A stretch of 64,000 nucleotides of DNA from an uncultured Candidatus Saccharibacteria bacterium (GCA_964548205.1 CAZJPJ010000002.1:69737-133736); one strand, 5' to 3'. Shown: positions 3,797-19,795, numbered from the stretch's first letter. Notes: a model not told the origin generated them from the letters alone. Made by a program: numbers and translations.

Positions 3797-6700
3797 TTAA
3801 TTATTATTTATTAAATATTCCAAATCAGATTTCAATAAGTTGTAAGCTTGCTCATTTATTTTACCTCTTCTCAAGAAAGAATCGAGCTCTGCTTCTAATA
3901 ATTTTATTATTATCTTATCCACTTTTTGCTCATACTTACCATATCTCTTTTTCTCAAACTTTATTATTAGCTTAGCTTGCCTCAACAACCGGTCTCTAGT
4001 TTTTTTGTCTTTTATCCAGCCAAGATCATAAGCCCCATTTATATCTCCAATGACAATATCGAGTGTGGTTACTCGTTCTGTTTCCAGCTCTTCGGGATTG
4101 TCATTATTTACTAGGGCATTTATTTCTGTGATCTGGTCTGGCTCTGTTACTCCCAACACCTCTTTTGTAACAAAATCTGTATCAGAAATATAGCTTGTGG
4201 CTACTTTGTACTCTCCGCCATTATCAGTACCTATTATTTCTATTTTATATTCCCCATTTTGTGGGTTAGGGATGGTAATGAACTCGTTGTTTGTATCAAA
4301 GCCAGAATAGAATGCTAGGGGTATCTCACTATATTCCTCTCCTGTCGCAAAATTTTTGCCTACCCGCTTGCCATCAGGAGCAGTAATCACCACATCGATA
4401 GGTGAGTATAGTTGGATAACAAAGAGATTTTCAATAAGACTATTGTTTATATTTTCGATCGAATCGCGACCAGTTAATATTTTTACTACATCTCCTTCGG
4501 TTATAGTAGGTAAGGCTCTATGATCGGCAGAATAAGATACATTAGGAATATTGTCATCTAGTGTTGCACCAAATATAGTAACTGTGCCGTCTCCTTGTCC
4601 AAGTTCTAAAGATTCTACTTCACCGTGTTCCCACTTTTGTGTATCTGTTGTTGGGACAACTACAATATTTTCAATAGTGTTGTTGCCAGTATTGCCAGTT
4701 ATATTTGTAATCTTTACTCCACTGCCTATGAGTTTGTCGGTATTTATATTTAAGGCTTCGAGAAAAATATTTCTAGGATAATTATCTGGGTATTGTCTTA
4801 CTACGCCCGTGTCTTTATCCTCTATATAATCAAATGTTGGCAAAAGTTCCTGTATAGATACTATCGGTCTATTCCTTATATAATCAAATAAATTTGTATA
4901 ATAATTATGGAATGCCTCAGCTGTGAAAATTAACTTAAGTATTTTACCAAGAGGGTCGTCTAAAAATTGACCAGCTTCCCAGTTTAGATAAGATTGTGGC
5001 GACCCCCTGTGTGGTGTTCCTAAGAAAATAAGTTGGTCGACATTATGTTGGTACTGACCAGATTGGATATATTCTCGCGCTACTAGGCCTCCCATAGAGT
5101 GTGCGACCAAGTCAACTTTGTTACAGTCTACCTCTGATAAATTTGCACTAGCACACTCAGATATCACATTGGTAATCTTATCTTTGAGTAGATTCGCCGT
5201 GATGATATTTGAATCTCTCCACTCATAAGGGAAGGTAAAGAGTGTGGAGCCTTTTTCATAACCATTGGCTTCGAGTGTGGCAATGAGGTTGTCGTATGTG
5301 TGGAGAAGTGGATCGATCAACCATTTGCCTAGTGATGCTTTGTACTGACTCCCCATAATCCCCGGAATTATTATGACGGGGTTTAGGGTGGGAGTAGGAG
5401 GTTCTGAACCAGGAGGGGAAGTGAGAAAGGGTATAAAGTTGGCGCTGCCTTTTATAGTATGGCCAGAGCCAGAGGTGTTGTCGGTCTGATGATAAGGACC
5501 ATCGGGGGAACCCCACCAGTTGCTTGTGACATTTGGTATCTCGGTACCACTTTTGTTCCATAGTCCATAGAAGCTGATACTACTCTGATTTTCGCCTTGG
5601 GTGAAGAAAGAAGAATTGTGCATGGCAAAATATCCACCTTCGAAAACTATTCCATAATTGTATATACCGCTATCGATGGCTGAGTTTTGGATATCGGTAG
5701 TTCCCGACAGTTGATTGATGGCAGTATTCTCACCCTTTTCAATTTTTAAATTATCTACAACGATATTGCCCCCATTGTTTATCAATGCCCCGTAGTTGTA
5801 AGTATAAGGCGCTGGGAAAACAACACCCCTGGCATATTTCAAGGTTGTGTTCGATATATTTATAGTGCCACCATTTTCAGCAACAATGCCTCCTGTTAGT
5901 ACATTATAATTGCTAGTAGCATCTCCATCGTTGTTGGTGTCACCTCCAAAGCTGTCGTCGTAGATTGAGGTGAAGATCACAGGGTTCTCTTTTGTGCCCT
6001 CGATACTTACTTCACCCCCTCTGGCTATGATACCGTTGTCTTGAGTACCTTTGAGTATAGTACCTGCAGTGACTATCAGCTTGTTTGGAGCTTCTACGGT
6101 GCTACCTAGAAAGACATATGGTTTACCATCTATAGGGCTTAGGGTTTTTGTACCTTTCGGTGAACCGTTTATAATCCATGTGTCGAAGTCGCCCCCAGTT
6201 ATAGTCGTACCCTCTATGTCGAAGTCAATACCAAGTGAGACATAAGGAGCGTGTTGATTGTCTACAAAATCTACATTTCTTATGTATAAACTACTTTCAT
6301 TGTTGCTTGTCTGAAAAATATTTAACCCATGCGATATCGTGGAGTTGGTAAGATGGAGAGAGCCGTTCTCCAAGCTTACAGCTCCGAAGTTGTTATCCAT
6401 GGTTGTGTTGTCTATGTCGGTGTCTCCTCCGTCTAAGTAAAAAACTTGAGAATTATTTATGAAGGTAGAGTTTGTTACACTCACATTGCCTCCTAGGTTT
6501 GTGATACCAGCACTGCCGGGAGGGAATTGGGCAAACCCAGCCCATCTTTGGTGTAAAAAATTGATATTGCCCCTTGAGCCATCTCGGAAGACAAAACCAC
6601 CCCAACGGTCAGTGAAGTTTGGGGCGGAATCAGAAGTGTTTCTAAATATTACTGGATCATCGTTTTGTCCTAAAATGTTGAGCGTACCAAAGATGTCGAA

Positions 6701-14270: not shown

Positions 14271-15944
14271 ATGAAGAAAGATCACAAGTATATATTTGTT
14301 GTAGGTGGTGTGATGTCTGGTGTTGGTAAGGGGATAACAACTTCAGCGATCGGAACGATCTTGCAATCGAAAGGTTTTAGAGTCTCCCTTATAAAGGCTG
14401 ATCCGTATCTGAATGTAGATGCAGGTACCATGAACCCCACTGAGCATGGGGAAGTTTTTGTATTGGACAGTGGCCTTGAGACTGACCAAGACATGGGTAA
14501 CTATGAGCGATTCCTAAACAAGTCATTGCCGAGCGAAAACTATATGACAAACGGCATGATATTCAAGTATGTCATCGACAAAGAAAGAGCTCTTGGTTAT
14601 AGGGGTAAATGTGTAGAGCCAGTCTATCATATTACCGAAGAGATCCTTAGACGTATCAAAAAATCAGTCGAGAAAAATAATTCAGAAATTACTGTTTTCG
14701 AAATAGGTGGCACTGTCGGAGAGTATCAGAATGCTATCTTCTTAGAAGCGGCGAGGATGCTTAAAATCAAGCATCCTAAGGATGTCATGTTTGTTATGGT
14801 GAGTTATCTACCTGTGCCGGGTAAAATCGGCGAAATGAAAACCAAGCCGACTCAGAATGCAGTGAGGCAACTAAATTCTTATGGGATAAATGCGGACATG
14901 ATAATAGCGAGAAGTGAAGTACCTCTAGACCATAAAAGAAAAGAGAAGATTGCTCTGGCTACAGGGGTGATGGCCGAAAATGTTATCAGTGCTCCAGATA
15001 TAGATAGTATTTATGAAGTGCCGATAAACTTCGAAAAAGACGGTCTTTCAGAACGAGTTTTAGAATATTTTGACCTCGTACCTCGACAAAAGGATCTGAA
15101 GGAGTGGAGGGCGATGGTGGGGAAGATAAAGTCCGCCAAGAAAGAGATAAGGGTAGCAGTAGTCGGTAAGTATTTTGATACAGGAGATTTCGTACTCTCA
15201 GACGCTTATATATCGGTGATAGAGGCAGTCAAGTTTTCGGCTTTTTCCCAAGGAGCTAAGGTTGTACTTTCTTGGATAAATTCTAAAGAATACGAAGTTA
15301 ACCCAAACAAAGTCAAAGAACTCAAAAACTTTGACGGCATTATCGTACCCGGCGGTTTTGGTGAGTCTGGTATAGAGGGGGTAATATCTGCGATAAAATT
15401 TGCTAGGGAAAATAAGATACCGTACCTTGGGCTTTGCTACGGTATGCAGCTTGCTGTCATCGAGTTTGCTCGCAATGTTTGTGGCATGAAGGACGCGCAC
15501 ACAAGGGAAGTAAACCCAGAGTCGAAGCACTTGGTCATAGATGTGATGCCGGATCAGCGAAAGAAGATAGAGATGGGAGAGATGGGAGGCAGTATGAGGC
15601 TCGGGGCTTATGAAGCGATAGTAAAGATGGGTACAATAGCTGATAGTGCCTACAAGAAATTTTATAAAAAAGACTATAAGAAAAAAGGAATTTTCGGTAT
15701 TATCTCCGAACGACATCGCCATAGATTTGAAGTCAATCCGGATTTTATAGAGGAGATAGAAAAGAACGGGCTTGTCTTTAGCGCCACTTCGCCAAATGGC
15801 AACCTGATGGAGATAGCAGAGTTGCCCAAGAGTAAGCACCCGTTCTTTCTCGGTTGCCAATTTCACCCAGAACTCAAGGCTCGACCGCTCTCACCTCATC
15901 CACTTTTTAGTGCATTTGTAGAGGCAATACTGAAGAAAGGGTAG
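14271..15944 (+). CDS. pyrG: CTP synthase
   Basis: N-terminal synthetase domain (GGVMSGVGKGITTSAIG) and C-terminal class-I glutamine amidotransferase (GLCYGMQ, HPE). Confidence 0.95.
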   Translation: MKKDHKYIFVVGGVMSGVGKGITTSAIGTILQSKGFRVSLIKADPYLNVDAGTMNPTEHGEVFVLDSGLETDQDMGNYERFLNKSLPSENYMTNGMIFKYVIDKERALGYRGKCVEPVYHITEEILRRIKKSVEKNNSEITVFEIGGTVGEYQNAIFLEAARMLKIKHPKDVMFVMVSYLPVPGKIGEMKTKPTQNAVRQLNSYGINADMIIARSEVPLDHKRKEKIALATGVMAENVISAPDIDSIYEVPINFEKDGLSERVLEYFDLVPRQKDLKEWRAMVGKIKSAKKEIRVAVVGKYFDTGDFVLSDAYISVIEAVKFSAFSQGAKVVLSWINSKEYEVNPNKVKELKNFDGIIVPGGFGESGIEGVISAIKFARENKIPYLGLCYGMQLAVIEFARNVCGMKDAHTREVNPESKHLVIDVMPDQRKKIEMGEMGGSMRLGAYEAIVKMGTIADSAYKKFYKKDYKKKGIFGIISERHRHRFEVNPDFIEEIEKNGLVFSATSPNGNLMEIAELPKSKHPFFLGCQFHPELKARPLSPHPLFSAFVEAILKKG

Positions 15945-16036
15945 TTGACTTTACAAAAGTCGGCGATTATAATTTTCTCAAATGATGACAATTCCGATCT
16001 CCCTGGTCGGAGGGAGTCGTAATGTCACAAACTTGA

Positions 16037-16092
16037 GGGGTGAAGCGTAGGATTCAAGCCTTCTGCACTTCACCCCCCAGGTTGTTTTTTTT
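16037..16092 (+). terminator. Rho-independent terminator of pyrG
   Basis: ggggtgaag/cttcacccc stem followed by ttttttttatt. Confidence 0.6.
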
Positions 16093-16093
16093 A

Positions 16094-16121
16094 TTCAAAT
16101 TTTTTGAGATATTGGTATAAT
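16094..16121 (+). promoter_or_regulatory. Extended -10 promoter (TTCAAA-N16-TGgTATAAT)
   Basis: ttcaaa at 16094-16099, 16-nt spacer, TG-extended tataat at 16116-16121. Confidence 0.45.
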
Positions 16122-16127
16122 TTAACT

Positions 16128-16208
16128 ATAGACGAGTTTGCCACTTAATGTGGCAAGGGGTGTCGGTATATCCCTGGGCCCGGCACCCTTATTTTTTTGT
16201 GTTTATTT
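16128..16208 (+). ncRNA. Candidate sRNA 1 (~80 nt)
   Basis: Starts ~7 nt after the -10. Two hairpins (ttgccac/gtggcaa; gggtgtcgg/ccggcaccc), then ttattttttt. Confidence 0.35.
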
Positions 16209-16229
16209 TATCATTGTGTATTATGTACT

Positions 16230-16326
16230 TGTAGGCTTCTGTTACCGCAGAAGTTGTGCGGCTGGATGTGGTGACTCGAGGATTCTATCCTTCTCCTCCG
16301 TTTCGAGTCACCTGCCAGCTTTTTTG
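16230..16326 (+). ncRNA. Candidate sRNA 2 or second terminator structure
   Basis: Hairpin cttctg/cagaag, then long hairpin gctgg..gtgactcga/tcgagtcac..ccagc followed by tttttt. The 80-aa ORF called here has no support. Confidence 0.25.
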
Positions 16327-16405
16327 TTGGTAAAAATGTTTATCACGAACTGGCCGTCTGACTTGCCTGCCGGTAGGTAGGGATAATATTAGAACAAGTT
16401 TAATA

Positions 16406-16780
16406 TTAGACTGGTCTATTATAAAACTCTAATCTATACCCATTTGGGTCATCAAACCAAATAAACTCTTTATTCCCGTACTTATCTATCTGGATACCAC
16501 TATTTTTAATATTTGCTTGGTTAAGAGCGTTTTCAAATTCTTTTAGTTCTTCAGTGCTACGGACGCCAAATGCTAGATGGTTGAGTCCAGTCATGTCTTT
16601 ATCAAAAGTAGCCCATTCTTTATAAGGAAGTCCAAAGAATATTTTTGTTTCTCCTATTTTATAAGAAACTGAATCTTCTCCGATGTGTTCTGGCTTACCT
16701 AAAAAATTAGTATAAAACTTTTCAGTTTCCTGAACGTTTTTAATTATTAAAACTATGTGATCTATAAATTTTGGTGTCAT
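16406..16780 (-). CDS. VOC/glyoxalase-bleomycin resistance family protein
   Basis: 124 aa, paired beta-alpha-beta-beta-beta modules typical of the glyoxalase I fold (HIVLIIKNVQETEKFY ... HLAFGV). Confidence 0.65.
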   Translation of the reverse strand: MTPKFIDHIVLIIKNVQETEKFYTNFLGKPEHIGEDSVSYKIGETKIFFGLPYKEWATFDKDMTGLNHLAFGVRSTEELKEFENALNQANIKNSGIQIDKYGNKEFIWFDDPNGYRLEFYNRPV

Positions 16781-17525
16781 ATTTGTTAGATTTTAATTTA
16801 TTTTTTGTTATTTTATTAATTATTTTTTGTGAAAAATTAAAAAAGGTTTCTCTAAATGACATATATTCATCGTGAGTAAGCTTGATGCTTTTCTTATCAG
16901 TATAATTATGACTTTTTATATCTCTTATTTGATTTAAAAAAGCATGATCAACTTTGCTATTGTTGTGTATTATAATATTTCTTAAGGCTTGTCCTAAAAT
17001 TATTAAATTTTTTTCTTTTTCCAGCAAATCAATATCTAATTCAAAATATTCTCTTAAAAATCTTAAGGTTGCTTGTAGGTCTTGAAAATTAACCTCTCCT
17101 CTTAATGAATTAAGTACTAAATCTCCCACGGTTGGATTTGAGTAGCGAAGTAAAGTGACATCAACATGCAATTTATTTTTCTTCTCAGGCCATTTAATCA
17201 GATGAGGATATTTATCTATAATTGATTTTGTTAGATCATTTAAAAAAGACTCAAAATTTTCAACTAATAAAACTAATGCTTGGTTATAGATAACCTGATA
17301 TTTTGCTATTAAAGATGAATGATTCTTTATGTTTTTAATCGTTTCAATTATGGTATCGAGCTTATTTTTATATTCAAGAAACGCTGGCATCTTTTCATAT
17401 TGTGTTTTTAAATTTTCCAATATGGATACAACCAAACCTCCTACATCACTACCGATATTAACGATTTGATCTACTAATTTTAGATTTTCTTCAAATTTTT
17501 CTTTTATGATTTTTAAATCGTCCAT
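16740..17525 (-). CDS. Hypothetical protein with HEPN-like R-x4-H motif (possible Abi-type RNase)
   Basis: 261 aa in a very AT-rich gene. C-terminal half has LGQALRNIIIHNNSKVDHAF (R-x4-H, the HEPN catalytic signature). Domain assignment is inference only. Confidence 0.4.
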   Translation of the reverse strand: MDDLKIIKEKFEENLKLVDQIVNIGSDVGGLVVSILENLKTQYEKMPAFLEYKNKLDTIIETIKNIKNHSSLIAKYQVIYNQALVLLVENFESFLNDLTKSIIDKYPHLIKWPEKKNKLHVDVTLLRYSNPTVGDLVLNSLRGEVNFQDLQATLRFLREYFELDIDLLEKEKNLIILGQALRNIIIHNNSKVDHAFLNQIRDIKSHNYTDKKSIKLTHDEYMSFRETFFNFSQKIINKITKNKLKSNKYDTKIYRSHSFNN

Positions 17526-17531
17526 GACATT

Positions 17532-17960
17532 TTATGGCAATAATTCTTTGTATTTTTTTAGTACTTTTTTAATCTCTTTATCATTTAAATCTCGCATTTT
17601 GATTAATGAAAGCGAAGCAACAATAACAGAAAGTATAGCTGAAATTAAATCTATGCCGGTTAAAGATATATTGATAGCAAAACCAGAAAGCCATTGAAAG
17701 ATAGCTTTTAGAACTGGAAATACAACTACTAGTGTACCTATAGCAGTAAGAGCCATCATTATTAGTTGGATCTTATAGTTTGCAATTTCAAGCTTCTCTG
17801 AATGTTCGTTAGATATTTCTATTGTTTTCTGTAGCTTCTTTAAAGTTCGTCTTGTTAGCTCATCAGAGGCAAGCACCGTAAAAGTTGGGCTAAGTTCGTT
17901 AACCATATACATCAGCTGGTCATCTGTTGCATCCTCCAATTTAGGAGAAAAATTGCTCAT
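17532..17960 (-). CDS. Hypothetical membrane protein, upstream partner of the HEPN-like gene
   Basis: 142 aa with a charged N-terminal region then 2-3 TM helices. Stop is 7 bp from the HEPN-like start, so the two look like an operon. Confidence 0.5.
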   Translation of the reverse strand: MSNFSPKLEDATDDQLMYMVNELSPTFTVLASDELTRRTLKKLQKTIEISNEHSEKLEIANYKIQLIMMALTAIGTLVVVFPVLKAIFQWLSGFAINISLTGIDLISAILSVIVASLSLIKMRDLNDKEIKKVLKKYKELLP

Positions 17961-18126
17961 GTATGAAAAATACCACTCTGTTAGTCTTCTGTCTAATGTT
18001 TGTTATATATAAACCTATTCGTATTTTTATGTTTTATAACTATGCAGACAATTAAATTCGTAGTCCAGACACTCTTCGATTATTGCATAACTTGGTTGGC
18101 AGTCTACCTTTCCTTAAGCTTCAGAT

Positions 18127-18155
18127 TGGCAAATCAGGGACTCGGTCACCCATAA
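18127..18155 (-). repeat. Degenerate direct copy of the tRNA-Gln variable loop, T-arm and 3' end
   Basis: On the minus strand, ATTATGGGTGACCGAGTCCCTGATTTGCC against the tRNA's GTATTGGGGTTCGAGTCCCTGACCGGCA. It lies ~115 nt 3' of the tRNA. Confidence 0.5.
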
Positions 18156-18266
18156 TTTTGTAGAGCAAAATTTGCTCGACCCCGACTCGGCTACGATTGC
18201 TTCGCAATCGGCTTCGCAGCCTCCGTCTTTCTCGTCCCTGACCGGCAGCTCTCCGCTGCGCTCCGA

Positions 18267-18337
18267 GCTGCCGGTCAGGGACTCGAACCCCAATACTCGC
18301 CTCCAGAGGGCGATGTCCTACCATTAGACGAACCGGC
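18267..18337 (-). tRNA. tRNA-Gln (anticodon CTG)
   Basis: Reverse complement folds with U1-A72 acceptor TGCCGGT/ACCGGCA, D-arm GTCT..GGAC, anticodon stem TCGCC/GGCGA with loop ctCTGga, T-arm TGGGG-TTCGAGT-CCCTG, discriminator G. U1-A72 and G73 are typical of bacterial tRNA-Gln. Confidence 0.8.
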
Positions 18338-18617
18338 AATACGTATAAATATTACATTTTTGCCTGTTTTTTTCCAGTTAAGCTCTTGTTTTGCTTGGGC
18401 TGGACTCTAGACCCACTCTTGTGTATAAAGAAAAAGTGGTAAGATTGGCAGCATAGAAACAAGTAACAAATGAAAAATTTTTCTGAGATATTTATAGCAA
18501 ACCAAGGTGAAGACGTATGGCTGACTCACGGGTTGCACTTGTAAATGGGGAAGTAAAAGAGATGACATACAATGAGTTTAAAATGAGTAATGTTTGAACG
18601 CGTGTTAATATGCATAT

Positions 18618-19046
18618 ATGTTACCTGACGAAAACTCGAAAAAATTTGTGGCAGTTTTGAATAAGAAGGTCGAAGTGGGGAAGCTTATGAATGCGCTTGG
18701 GCATATGACAGCAGGGCTGGCTGGGGGTTTTGGTAAAGGAGATGAAATGAATTTCCTTGAGTATGTTGATAAAGATGGAGGTATTCACCCCAAAATTTCT
18801 CATTTCCCTTTTATCGTTTTAAAAGCAGAAAATTCGAATCAGATTCGAAAGATTAGAAATGAAGCTCTGCAAAGGAGTATTTTGTGTAATGATTTCACAA
18901 GTACTATGACAGTGGGTACTTCAGACGATCAACTGGAAAGAACAAAAAATACCGCAGAGGTAGAACTGGAATATTGGGGAATCTGTATGTTTGGCAATAG
19001 CAATGAGTTGAAAGAATTTACAGGAAAATTTTCTTTATTTAATTGA
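18618..19046 (+). CDS. Hypothetical protein (DUF2000-like small conserved protein)
   Basis: 142 aa. Family assignment is from memory of the KFV.VLNKKVEVGKLMNALGHM pattern and is uncertain. Confidence 0.4.
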   Translation: MLPDENSKKFVAVLNKKVEVGKLMNALGHMTAGLAGGFGKGDEMNFLEYVDKDGGIHPKISHFPFIVLKAENSNQIRKIRNEALQRSILCNDFTSTMTVGTSDDQLERTKNTAEVELEYWGICMFGNSNELKEFTGKFSLFN

Positions 19047-19114: not shown

Positions 19115-19795
19115 GTGAGTGAGCTTGAGAGAAATTTTCATAAATTTAAGCAAATAACTAAGGAGGAGTCTATTATTGCTGAACAAATCAGAAAGAATAT
19201 CGATATCAAAGATACCGATACGATTTTAGATGTGGGTTGTGCCGACGGTAACCTTTCAAAGTCGTTAACGAAAAATACTTCAAATATCACATTTTTAGAT
19301 GTCGATGAGTTCAATTTCTCCCCGCAGGAAAAGTTTATTAGGTCATCTTTTGAAGAAGTAGAACTAAGTGAGAAGTTTGATGTTATTTTAAGCTCTCATG
19401 TCTGGGGGCATTTTTATAGGAACAATACTTTTGTTTTTTGCTTTCACAAAGCACTCGATTTGCTTAAAGAAAATGGGAAGCTGATCGTAGTACATAACTC
19501 AAACAAAGATTTTATAGGCAAGCTTATCGAATTTTCAAAAACACTTTTTGATCAGATAGAGTTTGATGTCTTTCTTGATGAGTTTCTAGAGAATGTAGAG
19601 TATAAAGAGTCTTACTTTGATGTGAGTTTTAAAGCTGAGACATTCAAAGAACTAGCCGAGCTCGTACAGGTACTCTTGGTTGTCCCGGACAATATCTATT
19701 ACTCAAAAATAGAAGAGGTGACCAAATTTTTAGAGACTAATCTTAAAAAACCAGAATTTCCTATCAATCAGAGGTTATTGATAATAGAGAAGTAA
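19115..19795 (+). CDS. Class I SAM-dependent methyltransferase
   Basis: Motif I ILDVGCADGNLS, acidic residue after beta-2 (FLDVDE), Rossmann-like layout. Confidence 0.65.
   Translation: MSELERNFHKFKQITKEESIIAEQIRKNIDIKDTDTILDVGCADGNLSKSLTKNTSNITFLDVDEFNFSPQEKFIRSSFEEVELSEKFDVILSSHVWGHFYRNNTFVFCFHKALDLLKENGKLIVVHNSNKDFIGKLIEFSKTLFDQIEFDVFLDEFLENVEYKESYFDVSFKAETFKELAELVQVLLVVPDNIYYSKIEEVTKFLETNLKKPEFPINQRLLIIEK

Follow-up and report, generated by a model that had tools for sequence, protein, structure and literature searches.

The question raised by a 64,000-nt stretch of DNA from an uncultured Candidatus Saccharibacteria bacterium (GCA_964548205.1, CAZJPJ010000002.1:69737-133736; the whole stretch is termed the window, and coordinates are counted from its first letter) is whether two small, AT-rich genes next to a tRNA-Gln gene form a dedicated antiviral system. 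Gene A codes for a small membrane protein, and gene B for a predicted metal-independent RNase of the HEPN type; the original prediction had seen in them a recurring combination of a membrane partner and an HEPN effector. The explanation which we consider reasonably probable is that of a small, horizontally acquired defense islet at a variable tRNA-Gln locus of a genome of the Candidate Phyla Radiation (CPR), with B as a probable abortive-infection (Abi) HEPN RNase and A as a promiscuous accessory. That the two proteins are the halves of a dedicated conserved system is not supported.

A and B are co-oriented, head to tail, on the minus strand (Table 1). They were correctly predicted to be closely spaced, but the spacer from the TAA stop codon of A to the ATG of B (17526-17531) measures 6 nt rather than 7 bp. 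This 6-nt spacing suggests that the genes are co-transcribed; no terminator-like site was found between them, and promoter and terminator scans of the locus detected nothing exceeding chance. The marked AT richness of the tract was borne out, the G+C contents of B and A being 24.8% and 32.6%, respectively, as compared to a mean of 39.4 ± 4.8% for 44 genes of the window. An 800-nt segment starting at 16700 represents the G+C minimum of the entire 64 kb, about 4 standard deviations (SD) under the mean. The tRNA-Gln(CTG) gene does lie beside the pair, upstream and on the same strand, at a distance of 306 nt from the start of A. At the other end, a gene of the glyoxalase/VOC family (31.5% G+C) overlaps the 3' end of B by 41 nt and could be transcribed together with A and B as a third gene. 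An open frame of 261 codons is expected by chance in 25%-GC DNA with a probability of about 4e-11 (an estimate based on a stop-codon frequency of ~0.088 per codon), and the intactness of this frame argues against B being a long-dead pseudogene.

A word-indexed search identified 22 close homologues of B, which share 43-71% identity and have a length of about 245 aa; the few for which a source is named all stem from Parcubacteria (CPR). R182, H187 and N188 are invariant in the alignment of B with these proteins, and the last ~17 residues of B form an extension missing in the homologues. A profile search of 1.84 billion representative proteins enlarged the family to 1096 representatives at E ≤ 1e-3, and among the best 150 of these matches nearly all are ~250 aa long and match over their full length. 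In a set of 74 spread-out members with a mean column identity of 19%, invariance is confined to the columns of R182 and H187 (74/74). The RNIIIH motif noted at the outset is thus present, as R182-N-I-I-I-H187, and its arginine and histidine are conserved as expected. Position 183, following the arginine, is occupied by H in 63 and by N in 11 of the 74 proteins; Q82, F147-Q148-D149 and S152 are nearly invariant. An AlphaFold2 (AF2) model of B (pLDDT 83.6, pTM 0.75) is all-helical, with the R-x4-H motif closing a helix of residues 169-187, H187 at its C-terminal end, and a loop of residues 188-193 next to it. In HEPN proteins, an Rx4-6H motif is located at the end of helix-3, leading into the loop to helix-4, and the residue after R is a polar N, D or H (PMC3710099). 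The B family shows this motif including the polar residue, and the AF2 model of B places it likewise at the end of a helix that runs into a loop.

Profile matches of family members point in the same direction. Pfam PF18735 (HEPN_RiboL-PSP) is matched by 12 of the 74 proteins (best E 1.1e-5), residues 87-206 of the member P0158, with its R195 and H200, corresponding to positions 34-165 of the 191 positions of the model. The PADLOC model RTasHEPN is likewise matched by 12/74 members (best E 4.6e-7), and the NCBIfam model HepT_toxin weakly by three (best E 6.5e-4). The assignment of B to the HEPN superfamily as a putative endoRNase is supported, RNase activity being predicted on this basis. Two members, P0163 (345 aa) and P0212 (362 aa), have an N-terminal extension. 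Two of the 74 members contain a DnaG-type CHC2 zinc ribbon and match the PADLOC models RT_UG29 and RTasDnaG-like, indicating that the HEPN module is also used in systems linked to primases or reverse transcriptases; most probably, the CHC2-bearing proteins are P0163 and P0212.

The gene neighborhoods of B homologues were analyzed for 12 independent loci. Eleven are defense contexts, comprising six type I restriction-modification (R-M) loci, two with type IIG/ISP enzymes, and three defense islands; one is unassigned and none is of a housekeeping type, in line with what had been anticipated for a defense gene. The three closest homologues (64-71% identity) are all encoded in type I R-M operons with the gene order hsdS-B(-hsdR). 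The same position is occupied by the gene of the anticodon nuclease PrrC in the type Ic R-M operon of E. coli, hsdM-hsdS-prrC-hsdR (PMC3710099). Given that hsdS and hsdR enclose the genes of its closest relatives, B would most likely act as a second-line abortive-infection RNase, presumably inactive until infection. The CPR type I R-M operons which carry a B-like gene hold further genes inserted between hsdM and hsdS, coding for unannotated proteins of 271-283 aa, a DUF4145 protein, and an AAA_15/AAA_21 (OLD/AbiEii-like) ATPase.

The product of gene A has a conserved cytosolic N-terminal head of ~40 residues (MSNFSPKLEDATD...LASDELTRR) and, in addition to a long stalk helix, two transmembrane (TM) helices at approximately residues 64-88 and 98-121, according to hydropathy and the AF2 model. 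It was rightly predicted to be a membrane protein, but "multi-TM" overstates a protein with two such helices. Among its 77 homologues, those labeled with an organism are nearly all from CPR bacteria. Most members of the family have 87 aa and a single TM helix, the 2-TM form occurring in seven, A of the window included. Pairwise identities of 0.66, 0.79 and 0.44 at codon positions 1, 2 and 3, respectively, indicate that the family is conserved at the protein level. Searches of Pfam, PADLOC and the Protein Data Bank (PDB) gave nothing convincing for A. Marginal matches pointed to SLATT proteins (PADLOC RTasSLATT against A, E 0.04; DUF4231 against one of 19 A-family members, E 0.004), but the closest homologues of A did not match SLATT models, and an identification of A as a SLATT protein is not supported.

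Contexts of the A family were surveyed in 27 A-like loci and 24 listed A-like open reading frames (ORFs), of which L012 repeats L011. A co-oriented gene ends at most 44 nt before the A-like start codon in 17 of the 24 listed ORFs, and the upstream gene codes for a recognized restriction or defense enzyme in 11 of about 26 distinct loci (including two contigs read without DNA). Among the upstream genes, two resemble housekeeping genes (sigma-70; SET-domain protein). A NucS-like nuclease and a DUF4143 ATPase are encoded among the downstream neighbors. Because the family trails Mrr, DRT2, type IIG, III and ISP enzymes, GmrSD, T5orf172 and MutH-like proteins, A would be a promiscuous membrane accessory of defense operons, for which B is merely the nuclease that happens to be adjacent here. 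Overall, the nuclease types found beside A-like genes are type I, IIG, III, ISP and IV restriction enzymes, DRT2, and in the window an HEPN RNase. Upstream of P0029, a homologue of A, lies a reverse transcriptase of the self-sufficient DRT2 kind rather than one of SLATT type. Both of the closest A-like loci with readable DNA (L037 and L011) are preceded by tRNA-Gln, as in the window, and the co-oriented layout of a tRNA gene followed by one or more defense genes and an A-like gene recurs in L037, L011, L015 and L018. This recurrence suggests that tRNA-linked defense hotspots exist in CPR bacteria. In L020 and L023 (4001-4602), the 87-aa A-like gene is followed by that of a paralogous tail-anchored protein, whose stalk and TM region match the A profile with E ~7e-6 among the ORFs of the locus. 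In L020 the next gene (4782-5222) is VOC/glyoxalase-like, its product being 27% identical to the VOC protein of the window, which hints that the neighborhood of A and VOC genes may predate the arrival of B.

Do A and B belong together? Several findings weigh against the islet as we interpret it. Hidden Markov models (HMMs) of both families, run over all ORFs of 46 fetched loci (~36 distinct), detected a B-like ORF in 0/27 A-like loci and an A-like ORF in 0/19 B-like loci; with no co-occurrence in 46 other loci, a conserved adjacency of HEPN and TM genes across genomes was not observed. The exact pair was found only on contigs of the window organism. The idea of a recurring membrane-plus-HEPN system was not upheld in the loci fetched. 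A tblastn search with all ORFs of related loci detected neither hsd genes nor their remnants in the 64-kb window; the possibility of such remnants was rejected, and, as no type I R-M system was detected in the window, a guard model as for PrrC cannot apply locally. B itself did not match any model of Pfam or PADLOC even at E ≤ 1, or of NCBIfam at E ≤ 0.01, and its link to HEPN proteins is a transitive one, drawn at the sequence level via the family profile. The best PF18735 score among family members, 25 bits (P0158; ten members scanned individually), is below the gathering score of 28.4. A Foldseek comparison of B with the PDB returned no significant match, the HEPN toxin 7ae6 ranking 24th with E 1.6, and an hmmsearch of PDB sequences with the family profile gave no credible relative; its only low-E hit, to 7mcd (E 1.3e-4), was rejected as that of a repetitive designed protein without a significant stretch. 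The proposed HEPN nature of B is supported by motif conservation and helix position and, weakly, by profile matches of some family members; Foldseek provided no significant match to an HEPN structure. Finally, position 152 of B is A, whereas 71 of 74 homologues have S, and B has its unique C-terminal tail.

A dedicated two-component Abi system, in which A senses infection or executes the response at the membrane (e.g., as a pore) and is the specific partner of the HEPN RNase B, like the HEPN-TM systems of phage-inducible chromosomal islands (PICI) or Cas13b-Csx28, would agree with the 6-nt spacing, common strand and shared low G+C content, which point to one transcript, and with the almost always operonic association of A-like genes with nucleases. 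Transmembrane accessory proteins have moreover been described for effectors of the HEPN and other types (PMC9226505; PMC11087260). We nevertheless regard such a system as unlikely, given a pairing that is unique to the window contig, the many unrelated enzymes accompanying A-like proteins, which make a specific recognition of B unlikely, and the lack of a significant PADLOC match for either A or B. Still less probable, in our assessment, is that B remains as an orphan from a type I R-M operon that has decayed, perhaps inactive or in the process of being lost, and A an unrelated neighbor in the tRNA-Gln hotspot, the juxtaposition being without function. The hsdS-B(-hsdR) arrangement of all closest homologues fits a relic, as do the missing hsd genes, the replacement of S152, the loss of the native stop codon of B with a gain of a 17-aa tail overlapping the VOC gene, and the fact that the two closest readable A-like loci share the tRNA-Gln neighborhood but differ in cargo. 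However, the frame of B is intact despite its base composition, all strongly conserved residues of the family except S152 are retained, and the tight coupling to A suggests that B is expressed. A toxin-antitoxin or addiction pair, with B as toxin neutralized by A, by an antisense RNA or by a small ORF, is very improbable: HEPN toxins are common in toxin-antitoxin systems, and the three weak HepT_toxin matches would be in keeping with one, but the known toxins of this kind have MNT nucleotidyltransferases rather than membrane proteins as their antitoxins (PMC3710099), and the B homologues lack a conserved small partner, their neighbors being hsdS and hsdR. Since each family independently accompanies restriction or defense genes, the most economical reading remains a variable tRNA-Gln defense hotspot in which the promiscuous accessory A happens to lie beside the HEPN nuclease B.

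A and B were compared with several characterized systems. The RiboL-PSP-HEPN family (PF18735; Anantharaman et al. 2013) is distantly related to AbiD/AbiF (PMC3710099). Its all-helical architecture of ~200-250 aa and R-[NH]-x3-H motif resemble those of the B family, of which the 12 matching members align across the motif core; all of these matches are under the gathering score, however, and none comes from B itself. The B family moreover lacks an endoRNase L-PSP fusion or a ParB operon and is mainly linked to hsdS and hsdR in CPR bacteria. PrrC is similar in having its HEPN RNase gene between hsdS and hsdR, as in the closest B homologues, but an N-terminal ABC-ATPase domain was detected neither in B nor in its family, the embedding in type I hsdMSR operons applies to six homologue loci and not to the window, where no hsd genes were detected, and the tRNA-Lys specificity of PrrC is not to be assumed for B. 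The RTasHEPN matches relate the family to the HEPN proteins associated with reverse transcriptases in UG/Abi (DRT) systems (Mestre et al. 2022, PMC9226505), although there is no reverse transcriptase beside B or beside its 12 examined homologues. Tha, an HEPN Abi protein of a Staphylococcus aureus prophage with the site R265NSIMH270, is a phage-triggered non-specific RNase (PMC11087260). In its described features, B resembles this stand-alone protein of ~300 aa, which has a helical, uncharacterized N-terminal part followed by an RNxxxH site. Tha stems from a prophage, but no member of the B family was found in viral contigs, nor B in phage genomes. In their layout, A and B recall the PICI HEPN-TM systems and Cas13b-Csx28, in which an HEPN RNase gene lies beside that of a small membrane protein. 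Unlike in these systems, the A-B pairing is not conserved, and the A family mostly occurs with DNA-targeting restriction enzymes. SLATT proteins, finally, are small proteins with 2-3 TM helices which are swapped among unrelated defense systems as accessory or replacement effectors (PMC9226505). A is comparable in its two TM helices and in the variety of its defense partners, one homologue directly following a DRT2 reverse transcriptase, but its conserved domain precedes the TM helices, at the N terminus, and single-TM proteins make up most of its family.

For the defense islet favored here, the following mechanism is conceivable. The structure and composition of the genes, the conservation of the motif, the size of the family and the gene neighborhoods are observed, whereas RNase activity and Abi behavior of B, and any interaction of A with B, are inferred. 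The family of B appears to be distantly related to the RiboL-PSP-HEPN proteins (AbiD/AbiF-like) and to HEPN proteins associated with reverse transcriptases. B would be a metal-independent endoRNase whose R182/H187 site cuts cellular or phage RNA, and the products would bear 2',3'-cyclic phosphates. As in the analogous cases of PrrC, Tha and further HEPN proteins of the Abi type (PMC3710099; PMC11087260), it would be latent until infection and then bring about translation arrest. In the window, B is separated from its R-M neighbors and is probably co-transcribed 6 nt downstream of A; candidates for its restraint are A, an R-M system elsewhere in the genome, or the N-terminal helical domain of B itself. 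As to A, the role of a pore in the membrane, of a tether or of a sensor may be considered, by analogy with SLATT or Csx28-type accessories (PMC9226505).

The tRNA-Gln gene had been reported to carry an att-like duplication of its 3' end, which could have marked an integrated element with A and B. A duplication exists, but it is small and does not bracket the genes. The direct copy (18134-18154 versus 18275-18295 in the tRNA) comprises 11 exact nucleotides, with 13 of 14 positions identical and, on extension, 17 of 21; 0.02 occurrences of the degenerate 14-nt pattern are expected by chance, whereas the 11-mer alone is not significant. This copy and an inverted one are both located in the interval from the tRNA to gene A, and neither flanks the pair; direct copy and tRNA enclose ~110 nt. 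No further copy of the tRNA 3' region occurs elsewhere in the 64-kb window, and no integrase was found near the module by family scans or by tblastn of the locus against the window, a search specific for integrases not being included. A tRNA-integrated island was rejected on these grounds. Short copies of tRNA ends a few hundred nt from the tRNA are also present in L018 and L023, where they do not bracket the A-like genes either, and we interpret such copies as scars of recombination at a hotspot linked to a tRNA rather than as island borders. The inverted copy is located directly 3' of the tRNA and can form a perfect 18-bp hairpin (18229-18287) with the 3' strand of the acceptor and T-arm (z -3.9 for the fold of 18090-18345). 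If transcription reads through, this hairpin would be in competition with the tRNA fold. In L047, a Logan contig of the same organism, the independent assembly breaks inside tRNA-Gln, ~336 nt upstream of A, as would be compatible with variability among strains or with repeats at this position. In IMG/VR viral contigs, no member of either family was found, PLSDB plasmids gave no match for B or its family member P0158, and GenBank phages none for A or B; an origin from a mobile element of these kinds was therefore rejected.

On one flank of the pair, housekeeping genes are located (prfB, ftsE, ftsX and pyrG, the latter ending at 15944); on the other, past the tRNA, a DUF2000 gene and a methyltransferase gene follow. 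The S-adenosylmethionine-dependent methyltransferase (19115-19795, plus strand) matches PADLOC mad2 (4.5e-14), which probably reflects generic methyltransferase similarity; with 34-37%, the G+C content of this gene and the adjoining DUF2000 gene is also under average. The intergenic stretch that separates pyrG from the VOC gene (15945-16405, plus strand) contains three strong elements consisting of a hairpin and a U-run, at 16030-16083 (z -5.35), 16138-16200 (z -2.85) and 16270-16335 (z -4.2). A promoter-like sequence, TTCAAA-16-TATAAT (16094-16121), precedes the middle element, which could represent a small RNA of ~75 nt. Rfam had no match for these elements, and in the region 15900-18700 the tRNA was its sole match.

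Table 1. Features of the A-B locus in the window, and related arrangements at loci of A- and B-family homologues.
Feature	Locus	Position	Strand	Remarks
Gene A	window	17532..17960	-	142-aa ORF, 2 TM helices
Gene B	window	16740..17525	-	261-aa ORF, all-helical, predicted HEPN-type metal-independent RNase
R-x4-H motif codons of B (R182-N-I-I-I-H187)	window	16965..16982	-	read from sequence
A-B spacer, 6 nt, A stop TAA to B ATG	window	17526..17531	-	read from sequence
Glyoxalase/VOC-family gene, 124 aa	window	16406..16780	-	Pfam PF00903, E 1.3e-7
tRNA-Gln, anticodon CTG	window	18267..18338	-	ARAGORN; Rfam tRNA 54.5 bits
Partial direct copy of tRNA T-arm/3' region	window	18134..18154	-	17/21 identical, 11 exact
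Inverted copy of tRNA 3' end	window	18229..18251	-	21/23 identical
hsdM-(unknowns)-hsdS-B-hsdR	P0004, P0003/L008, L038			start and stop codons overlapping
hsdS-B	P0002/L010, L041, L042
B directly after type IIG/ISP enzyme or T5orf172-ResIII protein	L006, L003
B in defense islands	L001, L007, L046			Bsp6I, Dcm, Vsr, SLFN_AlbA, NYN; DpnI, Zeta toxin, Fic; DUF4365
Operon with hsdM-hsdS inserts	P0004 contig
Operon with hsdM-hsdS inserts	L008	1768-3689
Operon with hsdM-hsdS inserts	L010	1689-2321
Operon with hsdM-hsdS inserts	L042	2269-3831
Mrr upstream of A-like gene	L037			closest A homologue, 70% identity; 8-nt overlap
DRT2 reverse transcriptase upstream of A-like gene	L011			PADLOC 2e-135
Eco57I/MmeI type IIG enzyme upstream of A-like gene	L013
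Type III Res upstream of A-like gene	L014, L017
Type ISP enzyme upstream of A-like gene	L019
T5orf172 upstream of A-like gene	L015
MutH-like nuclease upstream of A-like gene	L018
GmrSD-HNH upstream of A-like gene	L035
HNH upstream of A-like gene	L036
HsdR C-terminal fragment upstream of A-like gene	L026
tRNA-Gln/DUF2726/Mrr + A-like gene	L037	380-2296
tRNA-Gln/DRT2 + A-like gene	L011	2805-5128
tRNA-Ser/T5orf172 + A-like gene	L015	3242-4294
tRNA-Asn/MutH-like + A-like gene	L018	52-2434

As a single occurrence, the A-B pair itself is a fairly ordinary defense islet, and the two R-M-associated CPR families to which its genes belong are of greater interest. CPR bacteria (Patescibacteria) are largely devoid of CRISPR systems and are thought to rely on restriction-modification. 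Two unannotated families travel with their restriction enzymes, namely an HEPN RNase family of ~1100 clusters and a family of small membrane proteins. Neither is covered at threshold by Pfam, NCBIfam has no confident match for the B family, and PADLOC covers part of the B family (by RTasHEPN) and neither protein of the window; due to this sparse coverage, the genes are largely invisible to current defense annotation. It is a tentative thought that A-like proteins constitute an unrecognized general membrane arm of CPR immunity (e.g., by pore formation or tethering), of which A-B would be the HEPN-coupled version. The PrrC-like placement of the large B family between hsdS and hsdR suggests that suicide RNases guarded by R-M systems are widespread in ultra-small bacteria.

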